DNA of 64,000 nt from Clostridia bacterium (GTDB taxonomy: Bacteria; Bacillota; Clostridia; Oscillospirales; CAG-272): contig JAFQUJ010000004.1 in NCBI GenBank assembly GCA_017408585.1, positions 12,662-76,661 on the forward strand, given 5' to 3'. The notes under the pieces were generated by a model. The model saw nothing but the letters and a program-made list of their open reading frames with translations. It was not told the DNA's origin and ran no database searches. Positions 12,933 through 61,860 of the stretch are shown here, piece after piece; the stretch's first letter is position 1; each line of letters begins with the position of its first letter. The translations under genes were made by a program, and so were the position numbers.

Positions 12933-13100
12933 TTTTAGTGCGGATAAGTGACAGTCCAAGAACACGAGCGAAAGCGATGTGCGATTGGGTATTGGAACTT
13001 ATGCAAGGGAGTGCGGAGCACGAGTCGCAGTGCGGAATGAAATTGCTTCGTTAGTGTGTTGCAATTTTGACTATGCAAAAACGGGATATGTTAAATATTT
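12933..13100. repeat. dispersed intergenic repeat (related to 31110-31190 and, inverted, to 17178-17228)
   Basis: gataagtgacagtccaagaacacgagc… is the reverse complement of 17178-17228. …gagtgcggag…aaattgcttcgt(t/g)ag(t/a)gtg… is shared with 31125-31175. Confidence 0.7.
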
Positions 13101-13189: not shown

Positions 13190-14308
13190 ATGGCAAAAAA
13201 GACGACAAAAAAGAATGCGCCAACAGAAGCGACAGCGCCAAGCGCTGAGCAGAAGAAAAAGGCGTTGGAAACTGCGCTTGCGCAGATAAGAAAGAACAAC
13301 GGTGAGGGCTCGATTATCCGTCTGGGCGACGCTCCCGATATAAAGATAAGCGCAGTATCAACAGGCTCGCTCACGCTTGACCTAGCGCTAGGAGTAGGCG
13401 GACTTCCAAAGGGAAGAATTATAGAAATTTACGGTCCTGAATCATCAGGAAAAACAACGATAGCACTTCACGCAATAGCCGAGAGCCAAAAGCAAGGCGG
13501 AACGGCGGCGTTCATCGACGCAGAGCACGCGCTCGACCCTGTGTACGCAAAGGCGATAGGCGTAAACACCGATGACCTCTTAGTTTCACAGCCCGACAAC
13601 GGTGAGCAGGCGCTCGAGATTGCCGAGGCGCTAATCAACTCGGGAGCTGTTGATATTATCGTAATTGACTCAGTTGCAGCACTTGTTCCACAACAGGAAA
13701 TTGAGGGTGGAATGGGCGATAGCCACATGGGCGTTCAAGCAAGACTTATGTCACAGGCGCTTCGTAAGCTCGCAGGAGCAATCAATAAGACAAACTGTAT
13801 TCTAATTTTCATTAACCAATTAAGAAGCAAGATTGGCGTAATGTACGGAAACCCCGAAACCACAACAGGTGGTAATGCGCTCAAATTCTACGCGTCCGTG
13901 CGTATAGATATAAGGAAGAGCGAAACGCTCAAAAACGGAAGCGACGCATATGGAAACCGTGTAAAAGCCAAGGTTGTAAAGAACAAGGTTGCCCCACCAT
14001 TTAGAATAGCAGAGTTCGACATTTTGTACGGCATAGGAATTTCTAAGTCAACAGAGGTAATCGACCTCGCAATCGAGCTGGGAATAGTTGAAAAGAGTGG
14101 CTCATTCTTCACCTATGGAGATACCAAAATTCAAGGCAAGGATAAGACAAGAGCCTACTTTGAGGCAAATCCCGAATTAATGGACGAGCTTGAGGCAAAA
14201 ATCAAAGCAAAGCTTGCAAACATGGACGATGGTGACGCTCCATCGGGCGACGATGACGATTTTGGAGTAGGCGAGGACTTTGACTTGTCAGATCTTGGTC
14301 TAGACTAA
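13190..14308 (+). CDS. recA: recombinase RecA
   Basis: Trimmed to MAKKTTKK at 13190 (RBS aaaggaagtgagg). Walker [11 protein letters not shown]1/L2 regions, acidic C-terminal tail. Confidence 0.97.
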
Positions 14309-14405
14309 TTTTAAAATGTCTAAAATCCATCAAGTGTAGTTGGACAGGGTTTTTCACAGGAACGCCCGAATTTTATCAAACATTATTCAGACTGATTTTA
14401 CAAAA

Positions 14406-14475: not shown

Positions 14476-15120
14476 ATGGAAAATAAAATTTACTATAAGA
14501 TAGAAAAAATCAAAAAAACGCCACAGGGTTACATTTTTTACATTACCTCTTCGCTTGGAACGAGCTTTGAAATGCCCGTTTCGCCCGATCAATATGATCG
14601 TTTCGATCTCGAGGAGGGAGAAATTATTGACGATGCACACTTCTTGAAGATAAGAGAGGAGCATCTCTTTGATAATGCGCGTCGTCACGCCTTTTCGATA
14701 CTTTCCTATGGCGAAAACAACAAAAAAATGCTTGCCACCAAGCTTCAAAGACAGGGCTTTTCAAGGGAGCTAAGCGAGAATGTAGCTCTCTACATGGAGC
14801 ATCGTGGCTACATTGACGAGAAAAAGCAAATGGGGCTTTTAATCGACACATACTTAAAGAAAAAGTTTGGCAGAATTAAGATTGTTGAGGAACTTATTTT
14901 AAAGGGCTATCGTCGTGACGAGGTGTCCGAGTATGTTAAGGGCGCGCTCACAGAGATAAATTTTGCCGAAAACTGTGCATGGATAATCGAGCACAAGTAT
15001 AATCCACTCCCAAAAGATCCAAACGAGATAAAGAAAATGATGACCGCACTCATGCGCTATGGCTATAACATAGGCGACATTAAGGAAGCGATTCGCATTT
15101 TCCAAGAGGGGCAGGCGTGA
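14476..15120 (+). CDS. recX: RecA regulator RecX
   Basis: 214 aa downstream of recA. Helical-repeat sequence (…ALYMEHRGYIDEKKQ…, …LMRYGYNIGDIKEAI) typical of RecX. Confidence 0.82.
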   Translation: MENKIYYKIEKIKKTPQGYIFYITSSLGTSFEMPVSPDQYDRFDLEEGEIIDDAHFLKIREEHLFDNARRHAFSILSYGENNKKMLATKLQRQGFSRELSENVALYMEHRGYIDEKKQMGLLIDTYLKKKFGRIKIVEELILKGYRRDEVSEYVKGALTEINFAENCAWIIEHKYNPLPKDPNEIKKMMTALMRYGYNIGDIKEAIRIFQEGQA

Positions 15121-16484
15121 TGGAAAACAGAGCACTAAGAATAGGCTTTGTGTCGCTTGGCTGTCCCAAAAATCAGCTCGACACAGAGGTCATGCTGGGT
15201 CATGTGGTAAACGCAGGCTACGAGGTTACCCCCGACGAAACGGAGGCGGACATTGTAATTATCAACACCTGCGCCTTTATCGGTGACGCCAAAAAGGAGT
15301 CAATTGACAACATTCTCGATATTGCATGGCTAAAGGAAAATAACAATCTAAGGGGAATTATCGTCACAGGGTGCTTGGCAGAGCGCTATCGTGACGAGGT
15401 TATGCGTGAGATGCCCGAGGTTGATGCTGTTCTCGGAACGGGAAGCATTCACAACATAATCGAGGCAATAAGGGCAGTAAGACGCAAGGAAAAATATTCG
15501 TCATTTGAGGACAAAAACGAGGTTGCGCTCGGTGGAGACAGAATAGTCACCACGGGCGACGCCATGGCATATTTGAAGATTGCCGAGGGCTGTGACAACC
15601 GTTGCACATATTGCGCCATTCCGTCAATTCGAGGCAAATTCCGCTCACGCCCCATGGACGATATCATAACTGAGGCAAGGGAGCTTGTCGAAGGCATTGG
15701 CATAAAGGAGCTTGTGGTTGTCGCACAGGATACAACTGCGTACGGAATAGACCTGTATGGCAGATATGCGCTCCCCGAGCTACTAAGACGCCTAGCGAAC
15801 GAAACCGATGTTGAATGGCTAAGAGTTTTGTATTGCTATCCCGATAAAATCACCGACGAGCTAATTCGTGAATTTAACGAAAACCCAAAGCTTGTCAAGT
15901 ACATTGATTTACCAATTCAGCACATAAGCTCGAAGATTTTAAAGCGCATGAATAGGCGTGGTGATGGCGCGCTCGTTCGTGATGTGATTTCTAAATTACG
16001 CACACACATCGAGGGCATTTCCATTCGCTCAACCGCTATCGTGGGCTTCCCCGGTGAAACAGACGAGGACTTCGAGGAGCTTTGCGCCTTTATAAAGGAA
16101 GCAAGATTTGAGCATTTTGGAGCGTTTACCTACTCACGCGAGGAGGGCACGCCTGCTCACGATTTTGCCGACCAAATAGATGACCAAATAAAGCAAGACA
16201 GATACGATATAATCATGGAGCATCAGCTCGGCATCGTCGAGGAAATGCAACAAAATAGAATAGGCGAAAAAATCAGCGTTCTAATCGAGGCATACGATCC
16301 TGTAAGCGAGGCATATTATGGCCATAGCGACAAGGACGCTCCCGATATCGACGGCAAGGTGTTTGTCCAAGCCAAAAAGGGAACACTTAGCGAGGGCGAT
16401 ATAGTTACGGTTGAGGTTATAGAGGCGCTGGAATACGACCTCATCGCTTCGGTCGTTGATGGCGGCGCTCTGCGTCGTTACTAA
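15120..16484 (+). CDS. rimO: ribosomal protein S12 methylthiotransferase RimO
   Basis: The ATG at 15120 overlaps the recX TGA. N-terminal MTTase domain (SLGCPKNQLDTE), radical SAM CxxxCxxC (CDNRCTYC), C-terminal TRAM. The last 9 codons are encoded by the first unit of the downstream tandem repeat. Confidence 0.88.
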   Translation: MENRALRIGFVSLGCPKNQLDTEVMLGHVVNAGYEVTPDETEADIVIINTCAFIGDAKKESIDNILDIAWLKENNNLRGIIVTGCLAERYRDEVMREMPEVDAVLGTGSIHNIIEAIRAVRRKEKYSSFEDKNEVALGGDRIVTTGDAMAYLKIAEGCDNRCTYCAIPSIRGKFRSRPMDDIITEARELVEGIGIKELVVVAQDTTAYGIDLYGRYALPELLRRLANETDVEWLRVLYCYPDKITDELIREFNENPKLVKYIDLPIQHISSKILKRMNRRGDGALVRDVISKLRTHIEGISIRSTAIVGFPGETDEDFEELCAFIKEARFEHFGAFTYSREEGTPAHDFADQIDDQIKQDRYDIIMEHQLGIVEEMQQNRIGEKISVLIEAYDPVSEAYYGHSDKDAPDIDGKVFVQAKKGTLSEGDIVTVEVIEALEYDLIASVVDGGALRRY

Positions 16485-17320
16485 CTACTCCCCCGACCTT
16501 AGCGTACACCCTAGTACGCTATCGCCCGTGGAAGTAGTAGAGCCTAGCACAGCTTGCCGTGAACGCCCGAAGTATAGGGGTTGATGCTAGCTAAATACTG
16601 CGTTACTAGCTTTTGCCACGACCTCAGCGTACGCCCTAGTACGCTATCGCCCGTGGCAAAATCAGAGCCTTGTCTTTAGCTGCCTGAACGCCCGAAGTGT
16701 AGGGGTTGATGGCGGCGCTCTGCGTCGTTACTAACTACTCCCCCGACCTTAGCGTACACCCTAGTACGCTATCGCCCGTGGAAGTAGTAGAGCCTTGTCT
16801 TTAGCTGCCTGAACGCCCGAAGTGTAGGGGTTGATGCTAGCTAAATACTGCGTTACTAGCTTTTGCCACGACCTTGACTATAAGAACCTGACCTACCTGT
16901 TCTTGCGAACAGCCTGCTTTGCAGATAGTGAAAATCAAATAGAATTTTCACGGTCAGAACCTTGTTACTCATTACATTCGTAATAAAAAAAGATAGCCTT
17001 CGCCCGTGGCAAAATCAGAGCCTTGTCTTTAGCTGCCTGAACGCCCGAAGTGTAGGGGTTGATGGCGGCGCTCTGCGTCGTAACTCGTGAACCCCAAGGC
17101 TCACAAATTCGCCTCGAGGACCCCGAGAGCTCGCCCTACGACCTGCGACTCACTTCGTTCGCTTGCATAAGCTCCACTAGCCAATCGCACTTCGCCTTTG
17201 GCTCGTGTTCTTGGACTGTCGCTTATCAGCGTACACCCTAGTACGCTATCGCCCGTGGAAGCAGTAGAGCCTAGCTGAGCTTGCCCTGAACGACCGAAGT
17301 GTAGGGGTTGGTGGCTAATT
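16456..17320. repeat. tandem array of six junction-type (ACCTT / ATCGCC) structured units of ~125 nt, two carrying insertions
   Basis: Units begin with GTTGATG(G/C) at 16456, 16580, 16705, 16830 and 17058, and GTTGGTGG at 17306. Each ends …gaacgcccgaagtgtagggg. Two alternating subtypes. Units 4 and 5 carry insertions of about 100-125 nt in place of or next to the inner hairpin. Confidence 0.9.
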
Positions 17321-17353
17321 TTCGTTGCTATCTAAATTTATTTCATAGCATAG

Positions 17354-17395
17354 TTTCTTTTTTGGTAGCTTTTTTCTTTTGCTTAAAGAAAAAAG
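17354..17395 (+). repeat. Y-Y-R triad element (forward), 22 nt upstream of the pgsA ATG
   Basis: Identical core to the recF copy. Confidence 0.85.
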
Positions 17396-17416
17396 TACAA
17401 ACAGGAGGATATAATT

Positions 17417-17992
17417 ATGAATTTACCTAACAAGTTAACACTGCTAAGAGCGATACTTGTGCCTGTTTTCATGGCATGCATGCTCTATATTAAAAATCCG
17501 ACGGTATGTGCTATTGTGTCAGTTGTTGTTTTTGCGATAACAGCGCTAACAGATATGCTTGATGGAAAAATTGCGAGAAAGTACAACCTTGTGACCAATT
17601 TTGGCAAGTTTATGGACCCTCTCGCTGACAAGTTTATGGTTTTTGCAGCACTTTTAGTTATCACTGTAAAGAGCACAGGCGTGCTCCAGCAGGTAATGAT
17701 TTGGGCAAGTGCAATCGTGTTCTTGCGTGAGCTTGGCGTGACCTCAATTCGCCTAGTATGCGCAAATAGCGAGGTTGGCGTAGTTGCAGCAAGCTGGTTT
17801 GGCAAGTGCAAGACAGTTACCCAAATCGTCGCAATAATCGTGCTTATCCTAGAGCCTGTGGTTGTTTTACACCTAGTAAACACCTATTATATAGCATCAT
17901 ATGTCGCAGTAGGAGCTATGCTCATTATGACAATCGGTAGCGGAATTGACTATCTCAAAACCTACTGGGGCGTATTGACTAAAGAAAAATAA
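17417..17992 (+). CDS. pgsA: CDP-diacylglycerol--glycerol-3-phosphate 3-phosphatidyltransferase
   Basis: 191 aa membrane protein with the CDP-alcohol phosphatidyltransferase motif DMLDGKIARKYNLVTNFGKFMDPLADK. Confidence 0.9.
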   Translation: MNLPNKLTLLRAILVPVFMACMLYIKNPTVCAIVSVVVFAITALTDMLDGKIARKYNLVTNFGKFMDPLADKFMVFAALLVITVKSTGVLQQVMIWASAIVFLRELGVTSIRLVCANSEVGVVAASWFGKCKTVTQIVAIIVLILEPVVVLHLVNTYYIASYVAVGAMLIMTIGSGIDYLKTYWGVLTKEK

Positions 17993-18000
17993 TTTCGTGC

Positions 18001-18200
18001 GTTGATATCGTCGTTCTGCGTCGTAACTCGTGAACCCCAAGGCTCACAAATTCGCCTCGAGGACCCCGAGAGCTCGTCCTACGACCTGCGACTCACTTCG
18101 TTCGCTTACATAGGTAATTCTAACAAAAAGCAAGTTTTTTAGAATTACGATAGCTTGGACAGTTATCGTTAAGATAGCCATCGCCCGTAGTAAAACAATA
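18001..18200. repeat. junction-type element copy with insertion; its first ~110 nt repeat 17058-17168
   Basis: gttgat…ctgcgtcgtaactcgtgaaccccaaggctcacaaattcgcctcgaggaccccgagagctcg(c/t)cctacgacctgcgactcacttcgttcgctt lies on both sides of pgsA. Ends …gatagccatcgcccgtag. Confidence 0.85.
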
Positions 18201-18205
18201 CAATA

Positions 18206-18232
18206 AAAGGCAGTCATTGACTGCCTTTTCTG
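18206..18232 (+). terminator. rho-independent terminator-like hairpin
   Basis: aaggcagtc-att-gactgcctt followed by ttctgtt. Confidence 0.6.
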
Positions 18233-18249
18233 TTATCCCTTGATAATTT

Positions 18250-18265
18250 TGATATCATGATATCA
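18250..18265. promoter_or_regulatory. perfect 16-bp palindrome TGATATCATGATATCA (2 x TGATATCA), candidate operator upstream of the CotH gene
   Basis: Read directly from the sequence. The same 16-mer occurs at 46295-46310. Confidence 0.55.
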
Positions 18266-18406
18266 TTTTTGAGAGTGGAGAATGCGTTTTACAATTCATA
18301 GAGCGAAGCGAGAATTTTTGGCGTTCTCGGTTCACGCCGACAGGGTATTGATTTTTTAATATATATGTGTTAAAATAAAAAAGAAGAAGAAATAGGGGGT
18401 GAGCCA

Positions 18407-23224: not shown

Positions 23225-23230
23225 TTTTTA

Positions 23231-23420
23231 AGTGGTGATAAGCTTCGCAATACTGCGTTGCTCCCGAACGCCGACCTTGCCGTATGAAAATACGCCATCG
23301 CCCGTCGCTGATGCGGTGCGCCTTGCGCAGGGGTTCCCCAAAGCGAACAAAGTGAGCTTCGGGGGTTCGCGTGATTGCTTGCTTCTAACCCCTTAATCTC
23401 GGGGCTTTATCACTCTCTCC
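23231..23420. repeat. junction-type element plus associated downstream module
   Basis: …aatactgcgttgctcccgaacgccg-ACCTT-gccgtat-gaaa-atacgcc-ATCGCC-cgtcg…, then …caaagcgaacaaagtgagcttcgggggttcgcgtgattgcttgcttctaacccc…, also found at 38165-38240. Confidence 0.8.
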
Positions 23421-26759: not shown

Positions 26760-28307
26760 ATGCTAGAATATGTTATCGGCGGAGCTATTGGTATCGCTGT
26801 CGGTGCACTAATCGGTGCTATTATCGGCTACATAATAAGAAAAAAATCCGCAGAAAAGCGTGTCGGCTCGGCAGAGGCTCAGGCAGCAAGCATTCTTGAA
26901 AATGCAATGCTCGCAGCTGAAACCAAGCGCAAGGAGATGATCCTTGAGGCAAAGGAGCAAATACTTGCAGATAAAAACGAGTTCGAGCGTGAGGTTAAGG
27001 AAAGAAGAAACGAGCTGTCCCGTCAAGAACAGCGACTTAACAACAAGGAAGAAAATCTTGACAGAAAAACAGAGGCTCTTGAAAAGCGCGAGGAGGCGCT
27101 TGCCAAGAAAATCAAGGAATATGAGGAGCTACTTGAAAAGGTTAAGACCATTCGCGAGGAGCAATTAAAGCTACTTGAGAGAATTTCGGGCTACTCAATT
27201 GAAGAGGCTAGGGCTCTTCTCATTAAAAACCTAGAGGACGAGGTAAGACACGAGCAGGCTCAAAGACTTATGGAGCTTGAGGCTGAATGGAGGGAGAACG
27301 CAGACGCAGAGGCTAGAAACATTATCGCTCTTGCTATCGCTCGTTGCGCAGCTGACCATGTTAGCGAGGCGACCATTTCTGTTGTTCAAATTCCAAACGA
27401 CGACATGAAGGGTCGTATTATCGGCCGTGAGGGTCGTAATGTTCGTACAATCGAAAACCTCACAGGTGTTGAGCTTATTATTGACGATACCCCTGAGGTT
27501 ATCACAATCTCGGGCTTTGACCCTGTAAGGCGTGAAATTGCAAGAATTGCTCTCGAAAAGCTTATCGCTGACGGACGCATTCACCCAACAAGAATTGAGG
27601 ACTGCGTTGAAAGAGCTAAGAGAGAGGTTGAAACCACCATTAAGCAGGCGGGCGAAAAGGCAACCTTTGAAACAGGCGTTCACGGACTTAATATCGAGCT
27701 TATTAAGCTACTTGGTAGGCTCAAATTTAGAACAAGCTATGGTCAAAATGTGCTCACACACTCAATCGAGGTGTCCGAGCTGTCGGGAATTATCGCAGCA
27801 GAGCTTGGCGCAGATGTTACTCTTGCTAAGCGTGCAGGACTTCTTCACGATATCGGTAAGGCGCTCACCGCTGAAATCGAGGGCTCACATGTTCAAATCG
27901 GCGTAGATGTGGCTAAAAAGTATAAGGAAAGCAAGGAAGTTCTCCACGCAATCGAGGCTCACCATGGTGATGTTGAGCCACATTCACTTATCGCATTTAT
28001 CGTTCAAGCGGCTGATGCCATCAGCGCAGCTCGCCCGGGCGCAAGAAGAGAAAATCTTGAAAACTACATTAAGCGTCTTGAAAAGCTCGAGGAAATCGCC
28101 AACAGCTTTGACGGCGTAGAAAAGACCTTCGCAATTCAGGCAGGCCGTGAAATTCGTATCATGGTTAAGCCCGAGCAAATAAACGACGATACCATGCCAC
28201 TCGTAGCTCGTGAAATCGTTAAAAAGATTGAAAGTGAGCTAGAGTATCCGGGACAGATTAAGGTTAATTTGATACGAGAGAGCAGAGTAGTAGATTACGC
28301 CAAATAG
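26760..28307 (+). CDS. rny: ribonuclease Y
   Basis: 515 aa. N-terminal TM helix, long coiled coil, KH domain ([15 protein letters not shown]), HD domain (HSIEV…LLHDIGKA). Confidence 0.95.
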
Positions 28308-28310
28308 GCG

Positions 28311-28895
28311 ATTATAACTTCGTTATGTGTTGTTGCTCCTCGCCGGCGACCTCGATGTACGCATTGTACACCTTCGTCCGCCGTCTGTGGTGCGCCTAAC
28401 CTAACTCGTTCTAATCCCCTATTTCCACCAAGTGGAGTGCGCGTTGGGCTTCATCCACGACCTTGCCGTACGCTATGTACGCCATCCCCGTGGCTTCCAG
28501 TCCGCCTTCGGTGGCAAACCGAACGCTCCGCAGGAGCATATCGAGCACGAAGCGCATATCGAGTTGCGTTAGCAACATATCGAGTCCGTTAGGACATATC
28601 GACCTATGCAACTCCCTTCGGCGTGAATAGTTGCTGTGCAACATGAATTGGCTAACGCCATTAATTGACACTCTGTGTCGTGAATTGCACACCTTGTGTG
28701 CATTAATGCTCCGTAGGAGCAAATCATGAACGCTTGCGTTCAATTCATGCAACGCAGTTGCAATTCATGTGCCAAAGGCACAATTCATTCCTCATTCAGC
28801 ATTTCGCACTTGCGAAGCACCGCACTTGCGAAGCACCGCACTTGCGTAGCACTGCACTTGCGTAGCACCGCACAATATGGCACTAAGTGTCAATT
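28311..28895. repeat. compound repeat region in the rny-ymdB spacer
   Basis: Two junction-type elements (28321-28410 and 28455-28520). ATATCGAG-linked hairpins (28530-28615). Inverted copy of the 6493-6650 array (28640-28797). 16-nt tandem cgcacttgcg(a/t)agcac x 4.3 (28805-28873). Confidence 0.85.
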
Positions 28896-28965: not shown

Positions 28966-29739
28966 ATGTTTAAAATCTTAGCAATAGGAGATGTATGTGG
29001 GCCTTGCGGGGTCGAGTACATCAAAAGCAATTTATGGCGCATCAGGCGCGAAAATCAAATAAACATGGTTATTCTCAATGGCGAGAATTCCGCTGAGCCG
29101 AATGGCATTGACAGGCAGAGCGCTGAGGTGCTATTTGAGAGTGGAGCTGATGTTATCACCACGGGAAATCATGTATTTAGAAAGACGAGCGTTTTTTCGT
29201 ATCTTGACGATTGCGAATACATTTTACGCCCGTTAAATTACCCTAAGACGAACCCCGGTCACGGCTCGTGCATTATAAAAATAGACGGATACAGGGTGCT
29301 TTGCATGAACGCCTTGGGTAGCGCCTACATGGACGCTAGCGGGTGTCCGTTTGAGGCGATAGAGGCGACTCTTAAATACAACGAGGGCTTATACGATTTT
29401 GTGGTGCTTGACATTCACGCAGAGGCGACAGGCGAGAAAAGGGCGATTGCCTACAACTTTGCCGACGCTCTTAGCGTATGCTTTGGCACTCACACGCATG
29501 TTCAAACAAATGATGCGTGCATATTAGAGGGTGGCTGTGGCTATCTTACCGATCTTGGAATGGTGGGGGCGACTGATAGCATTTTAGGCGTCAAAAAGGA
29601 CTGCGTAATCCATCGCTTAAAGACGAAAATGCTCTCGCGCTTTGACTTCGCAGATGGCGAGGCGAGGGGCGACGGAGCTATATTTGAGCTTGACACAAAA
29701 ACAGGAAAATGTGTTGGCTGTAAGACAATTAGATTTTAA
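28966..29739 (+). CDS. ymdB: YmdB-like metallophosphoesterase (2',3'-cyclic-nucleotide phosphodiesterase family, TIGR00282)
   Basis: MFKILAIGDVCGPCG…ILNGENSA…TTGNH… Conserved rny-ymdB synteny as in Bacillus. Confidence 0.88.
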   Translation: MFKILAIGDVCGPCGVEYIKSNLWRIRRENQINMVILNGENSAEPNGIDRQSAEVLFESGADVITTGNHVFRKTSVFSYLDDCEYILRPLNYPKTNPGHGSCIIKIDGYRVLCMNALGSAYMDASGCPFEAIEATLKYNEGLYDFVVLDIHAEATGEKRAIAYNFADALSVCFGTHTHVQTNDACILEGGCGYLTDLGMVGATDSILGVKKDCVIHRLKTKMLSRFDFADGEARGDGAIFELDTKTGKCVGCKTIRF

Positions 29740-37190: not shown

Positions 37191-37999
37191 GCGATAACAC
37201 CTCCCAGCCAAGCGGTAATTGGAATAGCTGACGCCATACCGAGCACCATAGAAATAGGAAGAGCGTAGTCATTTAGCCACTTCCATTTTAGCTTTTTCAT
37301 AAGCACGCCACAAAGAACCATAATGAGCGCACTAACAATCATAACAAGAACGGGAACAAGACCCGAGGTCGAGGTATATTGAACGACCTCCTCAATGCCC
37401 TGATCGTTTTTCTCAATAGTTGTAAAAATACCATTTTCGCTCGACCAAAGACGATAAACATCACAGAAAACGAAGCCAAGAAACGCCGAAATCATGCCAA
37501 GGAACATAGCATTGTTAAAGATTTCACGCCACTTTGCGTCGCTCTTTTCGAGCTTAATCATACCATTTTGAATTTTCTTGGTAAGAAGTGGGGTGAGGAT
37601 AAGACCGAGAAGAATGCCGATTGTCATAACCCAAAGGATAGTGACAAAAATGCCGGGGTCGGTTACCTCCTTGCCCAAGGTTTCACCAAAGCCACTCATG
37701 GCATTGTTAGCTGCAATCATCTCATAAGAGAGCGAGCCGATAACCGAAAGCCTAAGCCAAGGCACAGCCACGCCAAGCGACTTGGAGAGGGAAAGCACAC
37801 CCACCAAAATGGATATAGCGGGCGCTATCGTGAAAACAGCCGAAGAAATAATAGTTTTTTTAAGCACACTCTTGTCCATTCCCTTGGCAAGAGCTCTACG
37901 ATAAGCGCGAATCAGAAAATAAAACGATTGCGCCAGCACCGTAGCTATTATAATCGAAACTATGATATAGATTATGGGGTGGTTAACATCAAATGTCAT
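37187..37999 (-). CDS. polytopic membrane protein (DUF5058-like)
   Basis: 270 aa with several TM helices. Translationally coupled to 36519..37190 and followed by the M20 peptidase. The family call is from memory of DUF5058 N-termini and is tentative. Confidence 0.55.
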   Translation of the reverse strand: MTFDVNHPIIYIIVSIIIATVLAQSFYFLIRAYRRALAKGMDKSVLKKTIISSAVFTIAPAISILVGVLSLSKSLGVAVPWLRLSVIGSLSYEMIAANNAMSGFGETLGKEVTDPGIFVTILWVMTIGILLGLILTPLLTKKIQNGMIKLEKSDAKWREIFNNAMFLGMISAFLGFVFCDVYRLWSSENGIFTTIEKNDQGIEEVVQYTSTSGLVPVLVMIVSALIMVLCGVLMKKLKWKWLNDYALPISMVLGMASAIPITAWLGGVIA

Positions 38000-38019
38000 A
38001 TAAATTTTTGAGCGTTGAT

Positions 38020-38400
38020 AATCTACGACAATCTTCGTTGCTCCTCAATGGTGACCTTGACGCACGCAAAAAAGTGCGCCTGCGCCCGCCATTTCCGGTG
38101 CGCCTTGCCTGTCTTGATTCTAAACGCTCAAACCTCCTGTTTTTTGTTTGGGTTCATTAATTGCTCCTCAAAGCGAACAAGGTGAGTTTTGGGGGGTTGC
38201 GTGTCTGCTTGCTTCTTAACCCTTAAACCTCCTGTTTTTTTGTTTATCGGCTCTTCCCCAGCACGAGTTGGCTTTTGACAGAAAACTGCTTTGAACTACT
38301 GCGTTCTCGCTCGGTTACAGACCATGAACGGTATGCGCCCTCGCTCCGCCTTGTATTTCTTTGCCATTTATCCGTCAAATTCGCCTTGCAGCTCACCTCT
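38020..38400. repeat. junction-type element plus associated modules
   Basis: …ttcgttgctcctcaatggtg-ACCTT-gacgcac-gcaaaaaa-gtgcgcc-tgcgccc-gccatt… 38165-38240 is shared with 23330-23400. 38300-38375 (actgcgttctcgctcggttacagaccatgaacggtatgcgccctcgctccgccttgt) is shared with 61675-61735. Confidence 0.8.
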
Positions 38401-43605: not shown

Positions 43606-44000
43606 TTTTCTTCGCGTCGATATGCTCCCCTCGGTCGCACGATAGCCCTTGCAGGCACGATATGTCCTGCGGACACGAGATGCTTTGCCTCGGCAAAGCG
43701 AGAGGTTAGAAAAAGAGAGCATATCATATCGAGCAACGAAGTTGCATATCGAGTTGCGCAGCAACATATCGAGTCCGTTAGGACATATCGACTTATATGC
43801 GTCCTTGTGTGCAAAACGCTCCATAGGAGCAAATCATTCCACATTCCGCATTCCACATTCCGCATTCCACATTCAGCACTTGCGAAGCACCGCATTCCGC
43901 ATTGCGACTCCCTTCGGTCGCTTGCATGGCTACCACCAGCCAATCGTTCTTCACTTCGCTTGAACTCTTGGGGTGTACGCACATCCGCATTTATACGAGG
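43606..44000. repeat. compound repeat: ATATCGAG-linked hairpins and CATTCCR heptamer run
   Basis: gcaac-gaa-gttgc, gttgc-gca-gcaac and gtcc-gtta-ggac hairpins joined by atatcgag (43725-43790). cattcc(a/g) x 6 (43835-43877). Also the hairpin gcgac-tcccttc-ggtcgc. Confidence 0.8.
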
Positions 44001-44633: not shown

Positions 44634-44700
44634 ATGAAATGGCTTTGCCATGAATTGCGACAAATCGCATGAATTGCAACCGTGTTGCATGAAAGGGTGA
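44634..44700. repeat. short CATGAAT-linked hairpin array (pth to the flavin reductase gene)
   Basis: tggc-ttt-gcca, tgcga-caaa-tcgca and tgcaac-cgt-gttgca hairpins joined by tgaat. Confidence 0.8.
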
Positions 44701-44702
44701 CT

Positions 44703-45257
44703 ATGAAAAGACAATTAAAACCCGGGGCGCTTGTTGCGCCTGTGCCGGCGGTAATGGTATCGTGTGGTAGCATGGAAAAGCCGAACATTATCACGATAGC
44801 GTGGTGTGGAATTTTAAACACATCACCCGCCAAAACATATATTTCCGTGCGCCCGGAGCGCTATTCCTATGATTTGATTAAGAGCTCGGGCGAGTTCGTT
44901 ATCAACCTTGTCCCAAGGGAGCTTGCAAGGGTTGCTGACTATTGTGGAATGGTAACAGGACGCAAAATAGACAAGTTTAAGAAATGCTCTCTTACCCCAA
45001 TAAAAAGCCCCGAGCTGAATGTCCCCATGATAGAGGAATGTCCAATAAGCCTTGAATGTAAGGTTAGCGACATAATAAAGCTCGGCACACACGATATGTT
45101 TATAGCCGATATCGTAGGCGTAAATGTTGACGAAAGGCTCTTTGAGGGCGACAAAATTTGCATAAACAGAGCGCACCTGTGTGCGTATGCTCATGGAGAA
45201 TACTATGAGCTTGCAAAGCGCATCGGCAAGTTCGGTTTCTCCGTCAAGCGCCGATAG
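44703..45257 (+). CDS. flavin reductase-like FMN-binding protein
   Basis: Trimmed to MKRQLKPG at 44703. …PNIITIAWCGILNTSPAKTYISVRPERYSYDLI… matches the flavin reductase-like domain. Confidence 0.75.
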   Translation: MKRQLKPGALVAPVPAVMVSCGSMEKPNIITIAWCGILNTSPAKTYISVRPERYSYDLIKSSGEFVINLVPRELARVADYCGMVTGRKIDKFKKCSLTPIKSPELNVPMIEECPISLECKVSDIIKLGTHDMFIADIVGVNVDERLFEGDKICINRAHLCAYAHGEYYELAKRIGKFGFSVKRR

Positions 45258-45350
45258 GCGTCAATTTTTGTTGTTGCTCCTCGCTGACAACCTCGACTAT
45301 CACAAGATAGCCATCGCCTGTCAGCTGTGGTGCGCCTAAAAAATTTTAGC
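45258..45350. repeat. junction-type element
   Basis: …tgttgttgctcctcg-ctgaca-ACCTC-gactatc-acaa-gatagcc-ATCGCC-tgtcag-ctgtggtgcgcctaa. Preceded by the stop-spanning hairpin cgcc-gata-ggcg. Confidence 0.8.
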
Positions 45351-45406
45351 CTATCAACCCTTGAAGCCGAGCGCACATATCATTGTTTTTTGATTTTTAG
45401 TTTGAT

Positions 45407-45441
45407 TTCTTTTTGTCCCCTTTTTCTTTTTCCAAAGAAAG
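45407..45441 (+). repeat. Y-Y-R triad element (forward, purine arm truncated)
   Basis: TTTCTTTTT-gt-CCCCTTTTTCTTT-ttcc-AAAGAAAG. First of two tandem copies of a roughly 95-nt unit. Confidence 0.7.
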
Positions 45442-45499
45442 CCGAGAGCCTCGGCAGGCAGGAGAAGGAAGCTTATAGGGTTTTTAATTTTTAGTTTGA

Positions 45500-45543
45500 T
45501 TTCTTTTTGTCCCCTTTTTTCTTTTTCCAAAGAAAAAGGGGGG
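45500..45543 (+). repeat. Y-Y-R triad element (forward), 27 nt upstream of the SGNH hydrolase ATG
   Basis: TTTCTTTTT-gt-CCCCTTTTTTCTTT-ttcc-AAAGAAAAAGGGGGG. Confidence 0.8.
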
Positions 45544-45569
45544 AAAATATATAAAACGAGGTAGAAAAA

Positions 45570-61624: not shown

Positions 61625-61860
61625 TTGCTCTCTCGGCAATACGGCTTGCTTTTTGACAAAAAATAGCTTCGAAACACTGCGTTCTCGCTCGGTTACAGAC
61701 CATAAACGGTATGCGCCCTCGCTCCGCCTTGTTTTTCATTGCTCTTTGTTTGCCAAATTCGTTACACAAGACAACCCTTAATCACCTCGTTCGCTTTTTT
61801 CTCGGCAATACGGCTTGCTTTTTGACAAAATAGCTTTGAAATTTTGCCAAATTACACGAA
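61625..61860. repeat. intergenic repeat modules
   Basis: ctcggcaatacggcttgctttttgacaaaa(a)atagctt occurs twice (61631-61675 and 61800-61845), flanking a copy of the 38300-38375 module. Confidence 0.75.

Follow-up and report, generated by a model that had tools for sequence, protein, structure and literature searches.

The closest described counterparts of the element treated here are the ERIC/IRU sequences of Enterobacteria, which are imperfect palindromes of 127 bp, and the RU-1, RU-2 and RU-3 "small mobile sequences" of Delihas (PMC2759123, PMC3184786). These repeats form one long imperfect hairpin over their whole length, carry no transposase of their own, lie between genes while often touching or entering the ends of open reading frames (ORFs), are transcribed with the neighbouring genes, occur in enlarged variants with inserts at fixed internal sites, and vary greatly in copy number between relatives. 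REP/BIME elements, which are associated with RAYT transposases (PMC3733652), are palindromes of 20-40 nt that stand just after stop codons in tandem clusters with alternating subtypes, and have been proposed to act as 3′-end stabilisers of mRNA. A third group comprises the classical bacterial MITEs (miniature inverted-repeat transposable elements) that carry IS5-type YTAR target duplications, including Correia/NEMIS, RUP and Nezha-type models. The present analysis concerns a stretch of 64,000 nt, hereafter the window, from contig JAFQUJ010000004.1 (C19) of an uncultured Clostridia bacterium, in which hairpin units of about 125 nt form a tandem array (16449-17331), with a rimO-like radical-SAM gene (15117-16484) on one side, pgsA (17417-17992) on the other, and further copies elsewhere.

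The array and its dispersed relatives are read here, with a probability of about 0.6, as members of a family of short interspersed palindromes (~125 nt) that had not been described before, the conserved core of which is the motif first noticed in the window. In general type the family belongs with MITEs, ERIC/IRU, Correia, RUP/BOX and REP/BIME repeats, and its multiplication has taken place inside a single genus of uncultured gut Clostridia. The likeness to ERIC/IRU and RU is one of architecture only, and covers the near-equal size, the end-to-end imperfect hairpin, the lack of an own transposase, the intergenic position at or inside ORF ends, the enlarged variants with inserts at fixed sites, the great variation in copy number between relatives and, presumably, transcription with neighbouring genes. 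Unlike ERIC/IRU, the element is hosted by gut Clostridia and Desulfobacterales, its Clostridial copies have no TA or other target duplication, its sense orientation and adjacency to stop codons are much stricter, and head-to-tail arrays are common. The first-pass annotation had taken the conserved junctions between covarying helices as the signature of a structured RNA; the structure and the conservation hold, but the object is neither a stand-alone noncoding RNA (ncRNA) gene nor a series of RNA genes of ~125 nt each, because its units contain no promoter or terminator signals above chance, overlap stop codons and vary in number and occupancy, and because the same core lies inside a textbook MITE in Desulfobacterales.

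The motif had been described as a hairpin within a hairpin with constant junction strands, and it is real. Matches to ACCTY-N8-38-ATCGCC number 10 in the window, where 1.59 would be expected, and this count is attained in 0 of 100 shuffles; true copies start at 16496, 16621, 16746, 23274 and 45290, and variant junctions are found where they had been placed, with ATCCCC at 28466 and TGCGCC at 38055. Relaxed junctions combined with an obligatory 5-bp inner stem gave 24 occurrences in the 1.48-Mb, 20-contig genome, and iterated nhmmer searches recovered 43 full or partial copies; the number of copies in the genome is put at about 30.

Both stems of the described hairpin are genuine, but they make up only the interior of a longer rod of four or five helices, into which the whole unit of ~125 nt folds end to end. 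The outer helix P0 (9-11 bp, roughly TTYRRNCGTT ... AACGNYYRAA) is followed by GAT(A), and a split helix P0b, in which AGCG-nn-GCAA pairs with TTGC-n-TGCT, is followed by CTGCGTTG. P1 occurs as GCTCC/GGTGC, GGGCT/AGTCC, GTTCC/GGTAC and other variants with a fixed central mismatch, and P2, a highly variable helix of 5-10 bp closed by a Y-R pair, leads into ACCTY. The innermost helix P3 consists of G-N-CGTAC or G-A-CTATC with its complement, has a fixed N·C mismatch and a loop of 4-8 nt, and is followed by WKCGCC and the 3′ strands in reverse order, including GCCTTG. ACCTY and WKCGCC form an asymmetric internal loop, and throughout the unit the loops are conserved while the helices drift yet stay complementary. 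RNAalifold, applied to 20 copies from this genome, gave 30 pairs, of which 27 show double compensatory changes, and 94.5% of the cells are paired as against 68.6% with shuffled partners and 33-40% with partners slid; this covariation, already suspected from the stems seen by eye, is among the clearest obtainable from a single genome. Whichever strand is folded, single units are predicted to form rods, with energies of -40 to -56 kcal/mol and z scores of -3.6 to -5.4. Covariance models of the unit (R1, 127 positions) and of the core (R2, 73 positions) were used for the searches below. The element also stands outside the known ncRNA families, as had been supposed: Rfam 15 at gathering threshold returned a tRNA only for the whole window, and at E ≤10 nothing overlapped the units in 16300-18300.

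A tandem array of six units starting at 16456 had been proposed. A ~125-nt array is present, but it comprises five complete units and a 32-nt stub of a sixth, and its true start at 16449 lies within the last codons of the rimO-like gene. Tandem Repeats Finder reported a period of 125 with 3.2 copies (score 551) at 16476-16875, and a repeat search found four 125-nt and five 86-nt copies at spacings of 125, 125, 228 and 249 nt. The units are arranged head to tail, separated by just 0-2 nt, and their sequence bears out the alternation of two subtypes, A and B, with left halves GGCGGCGCTCTGCGTCGTTACTAACTACTCCCCCG or CTAGCTAAATACTGCGTTACTAGCTTTTGCCACG. Unit 1 is predicted to fold as a rod of -55.8 kcal/mol (z -5.4) and unit 2 into a structure of -47.1 kcal/mol (z -3.6). 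The last codons of the rimO-like ORF are the outer 5′ arm of unit 1, TTCGGTCGTT, and the ORF enters the unit by 36 nt, with its stop TAA (16482-16484) inside. Left-end stubs like the one that closes this array follow arrays at C18:14797-14831 and C12:196248-196215, and arrays in other species as well.

Insertions of about 100-125 nt had been noted in two units; they are real, with sizes of 108 nt in unit 4 and of 52 and 83 nt in unit 5. These insertions are nested small repeats placed at fixed points, after ACCT or in the P3 loop, one of them, module X, being a repeat in its own right that the genome carries in at least 20 copies. Module Y, a 108-nt block at 16882-16991, occupies the loop of the inner hairpin P3 of unit 4 (GACTAT...ATAGCC) and has one further copy elsewhere in the genome, and module Z, a 52-nt block at 17082-17133, replaces part of the 5′ arm of unit 5. 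Module X (83 nt, 17145-17227) stands directly after ACCT in unit 5 and belongs to a separate family of ~83-nt repeats (GCGACTC...GTCRCTTAT) that are normally flanked on both sides by runs of CATTCCG/CACTCCG heptamers; it is also present at ~12944-13012 (C19:25605-25673) and ~43904-43976 (C19:56565-56637). A variant of X (18088-18167) is nested at the same point, directly after ACCT, in the composite copy that follows pgsA, which also contains module Z (18025-18076) and lacks the 3′ arms. In strain L103, module X stands alone and inverted downstream of the flavin-reductase gene.

Table 1. Copies and remnants of the element in the window, with the matches or features that identify them (window coordinate = contig C19 coordinate minus 12661).
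Feature	Position	Strand	Identifying matches and features
Unit 1 (subtype A)	16449..16573	+	nhmmer C19:29110-29234; model R1 match 16446-16575, 114.7 bits
Unit 2 (subtype B)	16575..16698	+	10-bp P2 helix TTTTGCCACG/CGTGGCAAAA; R2 core match 16598-16673
Unit 3 (subtype A)	16700..16822	+	R1 match 16696-16825
Unit 4 (subtype B)	16825..17051	+	nhmmer, left part C19:29486-29541, right part 29649-29712
Unit 5	17053..17299	+	carries modules Z and X
Stub of sixth unit	17300..17331	+	outer arm TGTAGGGGTT, GGT, first ~20 nt, end at CGTTGC
Composite copy after pgsA	17993..18190	+	begins right after pgsA stop TAA 17990-17992
Single copy, diverged 3′ end	23225..23355	+	R1 59.9 bits; R2 core 23253-23326, 61.9 bits
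Single full copy	28301..28427	+	R1 108.4 bits; starts at stop of 515-aa ORF 26760-28307
Core-only partial copy beside the preceding one	28441..28508	+	R1 model positions 30-98; R2 58.1 bits
Single full copy, strand opposite to neighbours	38005..38136	+	R1 110.4 bits
Single full copy	45241..45369	+	R1 101.2 bits; its TAG (GATAGG) ends flavin-reductase ORF 44682-45257
Probable footprint of lost copy after recA	14305..14335	+	CTAA TTTTAAAATGT CTAAAATCC

The placement of the element relative to genes is unusually strict. Most copies in this genome start 0-14 nt after the stop codon of an upstream gene on the same strand or overlap that codon by up to 13 nt, and among 73 loci of the genus the first unit is co-oriented with the upstream ORF at 68, with 55 of these 68 beginning -16 to +7 nt from the last base of the ORF. 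In many cases the element itself supplies this stop, as the TGA or TAG of its GTTGATAG, or else a TAA immediately precedes the element. For elements on the coding strand that is locally in the minority, agreement with the adjacent gene still holds in 12 cases, against 1 of the contrary kind; orientation is set by the adjacent gene, not by the regional or replication strand. Identical stop triplets are available whichever way round the palindromic outer helix lies, and the idea that the forward orientation is kept for quick stops in three frames found no support, a stop falling within 24 nt in 51% of forward and 42% of reverse frames. Since the outer palindrome is symmetric and quick forward stops are little commoner, the polarity can be explained solely by the asymmetric interior of the unit. 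The strict co-orientation with the adjacent gene points to a constraint acting at the level of the transcript.

The copy at the dnaB/DUF5058 locus separates a Shine-Dalgarno-like CCTCC (38134-38138; AGGAGG on the minus strand) from the ATG of the DUF5058 gene (37999). The modelled rod would need to fold to bring the two signals together, and the site could be a "split ribosome-binding site" bridged by a hairpin. The window allele of this site (37999-38140) also contains another unit, which is degraded, and a direct repeat of 17 nt, CCTCCTGTTTTTTGTTT; strain L262 has a unit of a different subfamily there. Effects on coding ends were seen at two loci: the C-terminus of the RimO-like protein depends on the repeat, ending in ...ASVVDAI* where only the scar is present and in ...ASVVDGGALRRY* (454-455 aa) in filled alleles, and the flavin-reductase ORF ends differently in three strain types, giving products of 184, 185 and 196 aa.

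Strain states around rimO, pgsA and recA were read from contigs of other samples that encode an identical PgsA. At the rimO-pgsA site, L098 has a scar only, ...GGTCGTTGATG|CTATCTAA, with a RimO-like protein of 449 aa; L096 has one composite unit, L093 and four others have two units, L095 has three, and L094 has a five-unit array identical to that of the window, with spacers of 81, 326, 412, 641 and 932 bp among the strains. One to three units follow pgsA, with one or two extra complete units in L096, L093, L098 and L095. After recA there is a full unit in L093, while the window, L095 and L098 keep just CTAA-TTTTAAA(A)TGT-CTAA, that is, the two extreme ends of an element. RecA groups the organism with metagenome-assembled genomes (MAGs) of uncultured gut "Eubacteriales/Oscillospiraceae", with 86% identity to SIG661, in which the rimO end has no element and a different C-terminus, and copies follow recA and the gene before recA (L001), not rimO. 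The rimO-pgsA spacer of SIG661 (L001 9340-9685) contains no element copy and instead has a segment of ~300 nt with inverted runs of GGAATGC/GCATTCC heptamers at its borders, a further kind of repeat found in these genomes.

The notion that P0 is a copy of its target, or a "guide" to it, had been suggested by an apparent complementarity of the 3′ arm to native gene sequence at rimO, and was rejected on the grounds that the outer arm has a family consensus and that the rimO end differs in the SIG661 orthologue; it is further contradicted by the recA case, which shows the opposite asymmetry. For these same reasons, the "empty" alleles are better read as deletion scars, and the strain patterns fit unequal recombination between units together with deletions at the foot of the hairpin. 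Gains of the element must also occur, because different species carry it at different genes.

Beyond the strains, R1 searches found 1-40 copies in 23 of 24 species of the same genus and none in 16 other families of the same order. Searches of 300 Clostridia genomes with the R2 core gave just two weak 53-nt matches outside this genus, and 10 of 151 Desulfobacterales genomes were positive, with up to 32 or more copies. The Desulfobacterales copies had first come to light in a pattern scan of species genomes, as full-length copies in Desulfobacteraceae MAGs. There, a homologous interior of ~125 nt is enclosed by terminal inverted repeats of 35 nt in an element of ~195 nt with sharp terminal inverted repeats of 22 nt (TAACCCGCATTTCTCACGGGC), flanked by 4-bp YTAR duplications (CTAA, CTAG, TTAA or TTAG), with optional stem-loop modules inside, short derivatives without the core, and a near-random orientation to genes (15 vs 9). 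Because of these features, the Desulfobacterales element is classed as a MITE of the classical YTAR type, and its inverted repeats, its duplications, its 30 to >100 copies per genome and its short, internally deleted derivatives match that group. The two phyla share the interior of the element and not its ends, the Clostridial family being without the outer arms and the duplication. The unpaired junction strands, noticed originally within a single window, are conserved even between Clostridia and Desulfobacterales, and across the two phyla the core alone is 94.9% paired as against 72.3% with shuffled partners. Phages and plasmids gave no blastn match to the element, and the 8 pattern matches in IMG/VR all failed the covariance model.

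According to the reading of the element as a mobile palindromic repeat family, a unit would probably be transcribed as the first part of a 3′ untranslated region (UTR) or of an inter-cistronic spacer, would then fold into an RNA rod of -40 to -56 kcal/mol, and may be retained only where, and in the orientation in which, this RNA is harmless or useful. By analogy with REP and ERIC repeats, the unit could act as a 3′-end stabiliser or processing site.

Several results weigh against this reading. No consistent direct repeat of 2-5 bp was found at any boundary offset among 21 Clostridial copies, and the Clostridial outer helix P0, although inverted-repeat-like, differs from copy to copy, with a consensus of just TTYRRNNGTT. 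Both Y1 transposases (PF01797; IS200/RAYT) and IS4/IS5-type DDE transposases (PF01609) are absent from the high-copy genomes (among them a 97%-complete genome with 30 copies; for Y1, G000, G008, G011, G022 and G023), absences that are limited by the frequent loss of insertion sequence (IS) copies from MAGs. No strain difference is an unambiguous fresh insertion, and all can be read as deletion or unequal recombination. Among 102 model-aligned copies, mismatches in stems are G-T/T-G in 76 cases, one invariant T·G being left out of this count, and A-C/C-A in 64, a balance that a DNA palindrome, young copies or arm-to-arm correction would be expected to show and that would not be usual under long selection on an RNA helix. 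Two metatranscriptomes have traces of the organism, and the one contig that spans a unit (222 nt, depth 3.7) is unusable as evidence. Plain selfish-DNA drift, moreover, does not explain the cross-phylum conservation of the asymmetric loops.

The search for a mover was likewise negative within its range. None of ~100 loci sampled holds an ORF-bearing, autonomous copy, and Desulfobacterales terminal inverted repeats that lie 1.6-1.9 kb apart enclose host genes only. An IS-end match had been raised early on as something that might account for the motif; the element is indeed MITE-like, but no parent IS was found. Two specific movers were considered and rejected. One was IS200/IS605-type transposition of single-stranded DNA (ssDNA), with a TTGAT target and a replication-strand bias, which conflicts with the gene-following orientation (12 vs 1) and the absence of Y1 transposases. 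The other was an IS5-type partner in Clostridia, set aside on the absence of PF01609 from the high-copy genomes.

Set against the described classes, the Clostridial element is MITE-like in being ~125 nt long (MITEs are shorter than ~300 bp), noncoding, multicopy and polymorphic in presence or absence between close relatives, and lacks both the target-site duplication and a cognate autonomous IS with the same ends. It shares with REP/BIME elements the position of palindromic units just after stop codons, the tandem clusters with alternating subtypes, and a CGTC tetranucleotide near one end (AGCGTCG); unlike them, its units are 3-5 times longer with several helices, are arrayed head to tail rather than alternately inverted, and have no Y1/RAYT gene in high-copy genomes. 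PATEs of the IS200/IS605 kind have neither terminal inverted repeats nor target-site duplications, insert 3′ of a fixed target of 4-5 nt, take their orientation from the lagging-strand template and go with a Y1 transposase (TnpA). The absence of a target-site duplication and the GAT boundary fit such a PATE, whereas the gene-following orientation and the absence of Y1 do not. Like attC sites, the units have two stacked stems split by an unpaired spacer of 5x6 nt, a fixed mismatch in the inner stem, a variable terminal structure, and stems that conserve structure rather than sequence; unlike attC (R″ RYYYAAC ... R′ GTTRRRY), the foot reads ...GTT GAT ... CTR AAC..., the opposite polarity, no gene cassettes lie between sites, and the sites are dispersed at the ends of housekeeping genes with gene-coupled orientation. 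The repeats of type III toxin-antitoxin RNAs, which stand in tandem beside a toxin gene, and of CRISPR, which have unique spacers between them, are excluded by the location of the array between rimO and pgsA and by its abutting units. The element does not pass the defining tests for REP/RAYT, IS200/605 PATEs or attC, nor, among Clostridia, those for a strict MITE.

The conservation of unpaired strands across phyla and the gene-coupled polarity leave room for a real sense-strand RNA role. Foremost among the less probable readings is one in which the asymmetric ~73-nt core (P1-P2-ACCTY/WKCGCC-P3) would be a functional sense-strand RNA module, for example a place where a conserved RNase or RNA-binding protein binds or cuts to define the 3′ ends of mRNAs, and would have spread inside palindromic mobile DNA between genes and even between phyla. 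If this were true, the core would be a "portable 3′-UTR domain" common to gut Clostridia and marine Desulfobacterales.

Next in order, and also improbable, is the proposal that the element is primarily a cis-acting 3′-UTR RNA domain of the host, with conserved internal loops to which a protein or RNase would bind in the sense transcript, and that it passed from gene to gene by recombination and not by transposition. The strict sense orientation and adjacency to stop codons would follow naturally from it, as would conserved loops within varying helices, a polarity that the symmetric stop triplets of the outer palindrome leave to the asymmetric interior, and a rod at dnaB/DUF5058 that must fold to join the Shine-Dalgarno sequence and the AUG. 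A needed regulator, on the other hand, would hardly range from 0 to 40 copies between sister species or vary in occupancy between strains, and the near-random orientation in Desulfobacterales (15 vs 9), the lack of a G-U excess and the unrelated housekeeping functions of the genes served all speak against it.

A more doubtful proposal is that the core hairpin, as folded ssDNA, is recognised and cut by a recombinase or HUH transposase whose gene lies elsewhere, in the style of attC, IS200/IS605 ends, PATEs or REP/RAYT, with arrays and stubs arising by site-specific events at the GAT after the outer arm. Its attC-like architecture with a terminal loop of variable size that accepts large inserts, the finding that G-T wobbles are no commoner than A-C mismatches, which fits a constraint at the DNA level, the frequent ending of arrays in a solo "outer arm + GAT", and the L098 scar, which retains exactly ...CGTTGATG, are all in its favour, as is the fact that TTGAT is the target of ISDra2. 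The orientation of copies, however, follows the adjacent gene and not a replication-linked strand (12 vs 1), which argues against lagging-strand transposition, and Y1 transposases are absent from high-copy genomes. Moreover, the outer arms, ...GTT / AAC..., are the reverse of the attC arrangement (R″ ...AAC / R′ GTT...), within each unit P0-L finds its pairing partner in that unit's P0-R, a misfit with a unit that starts after TTGAT, and copies are scattered at gene ends instead of being clustered as cassettes.

The strongest version of the first-pass reading, in which stand-alone small RNAs or self-cleaving ribozymes would be made from the array and processed to a unit length of ~125 nt, is very improbable. 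The regular 125-nt period, the strong structure and the conserved unpaired strands would suit such RNAs, but no Rfam ribozyme or small RNA matched at E ≤10, no promoter or terminator was found, unit 1 overlaps the coding end of rimO, most loci are single copies on stop codons, and unit number varies freely between strains. Chance palindromes or an assembly artefact, suggested just by the general tendency of repeats to mis-assemble in MAGs, can be given practically no weight, as the same array structure appears in independent assemblies (identical in L094, as variants in L093, L095 and L096) and hundreds of copies are present in >30 genomes.

Some further sequences were observed alongside the copies of Table 1. 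Two weak, diverged matches to the element model, of 26 bits each, lie at 38273-38382 and 61650-61761, have the common sequence CTGCGTTCTCGCTCGGTTACAGACCATRAACGGTATGCGCCCTCGCTCCGCCTTG, and may represent an older or sister subfamily. A motif, NCATCAAGTG ... TTGGACAGGG, recurs directly downstream of elements in several species (L118, L157, L117) and directly downstream of the recA footprint (14305-14350), and may be a further 3′ module of the unit or a second repeat that travels along with it. Between the array and pgsA (17340-17400) there is a cassette rich in AT that includes a perfect palindrome, CTTTTTTCTTTT..AAAGAAAAAAG; the cassette recurs, partly in tandem, upstream of a GDSL-lipase gene (45400-45560) and varies in copy number among strains (seen in L098 and L112), and it looks like a portable promoter or leader segment.

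The palindromic family described here adds a well-defined repeat to a poorly annotated group of gut bacteria, and explains strain differences in ORF ends and intergenic lengths, such as RimO-like proteins of 449 as against 454/455 aa and spacers of 81-932 bp. It also serves as a warning to annotators that its hairpins, although they covary strongly, are not ncRNA genes. For repeats of this kind, the conservation of unpaired loops across phyla and the near-exclusive sense placement on stop codons in Clostridia are unusual, and should the polarity reflect a function of the RNA, the element would amount to a portable 3′-end module of natural origin.

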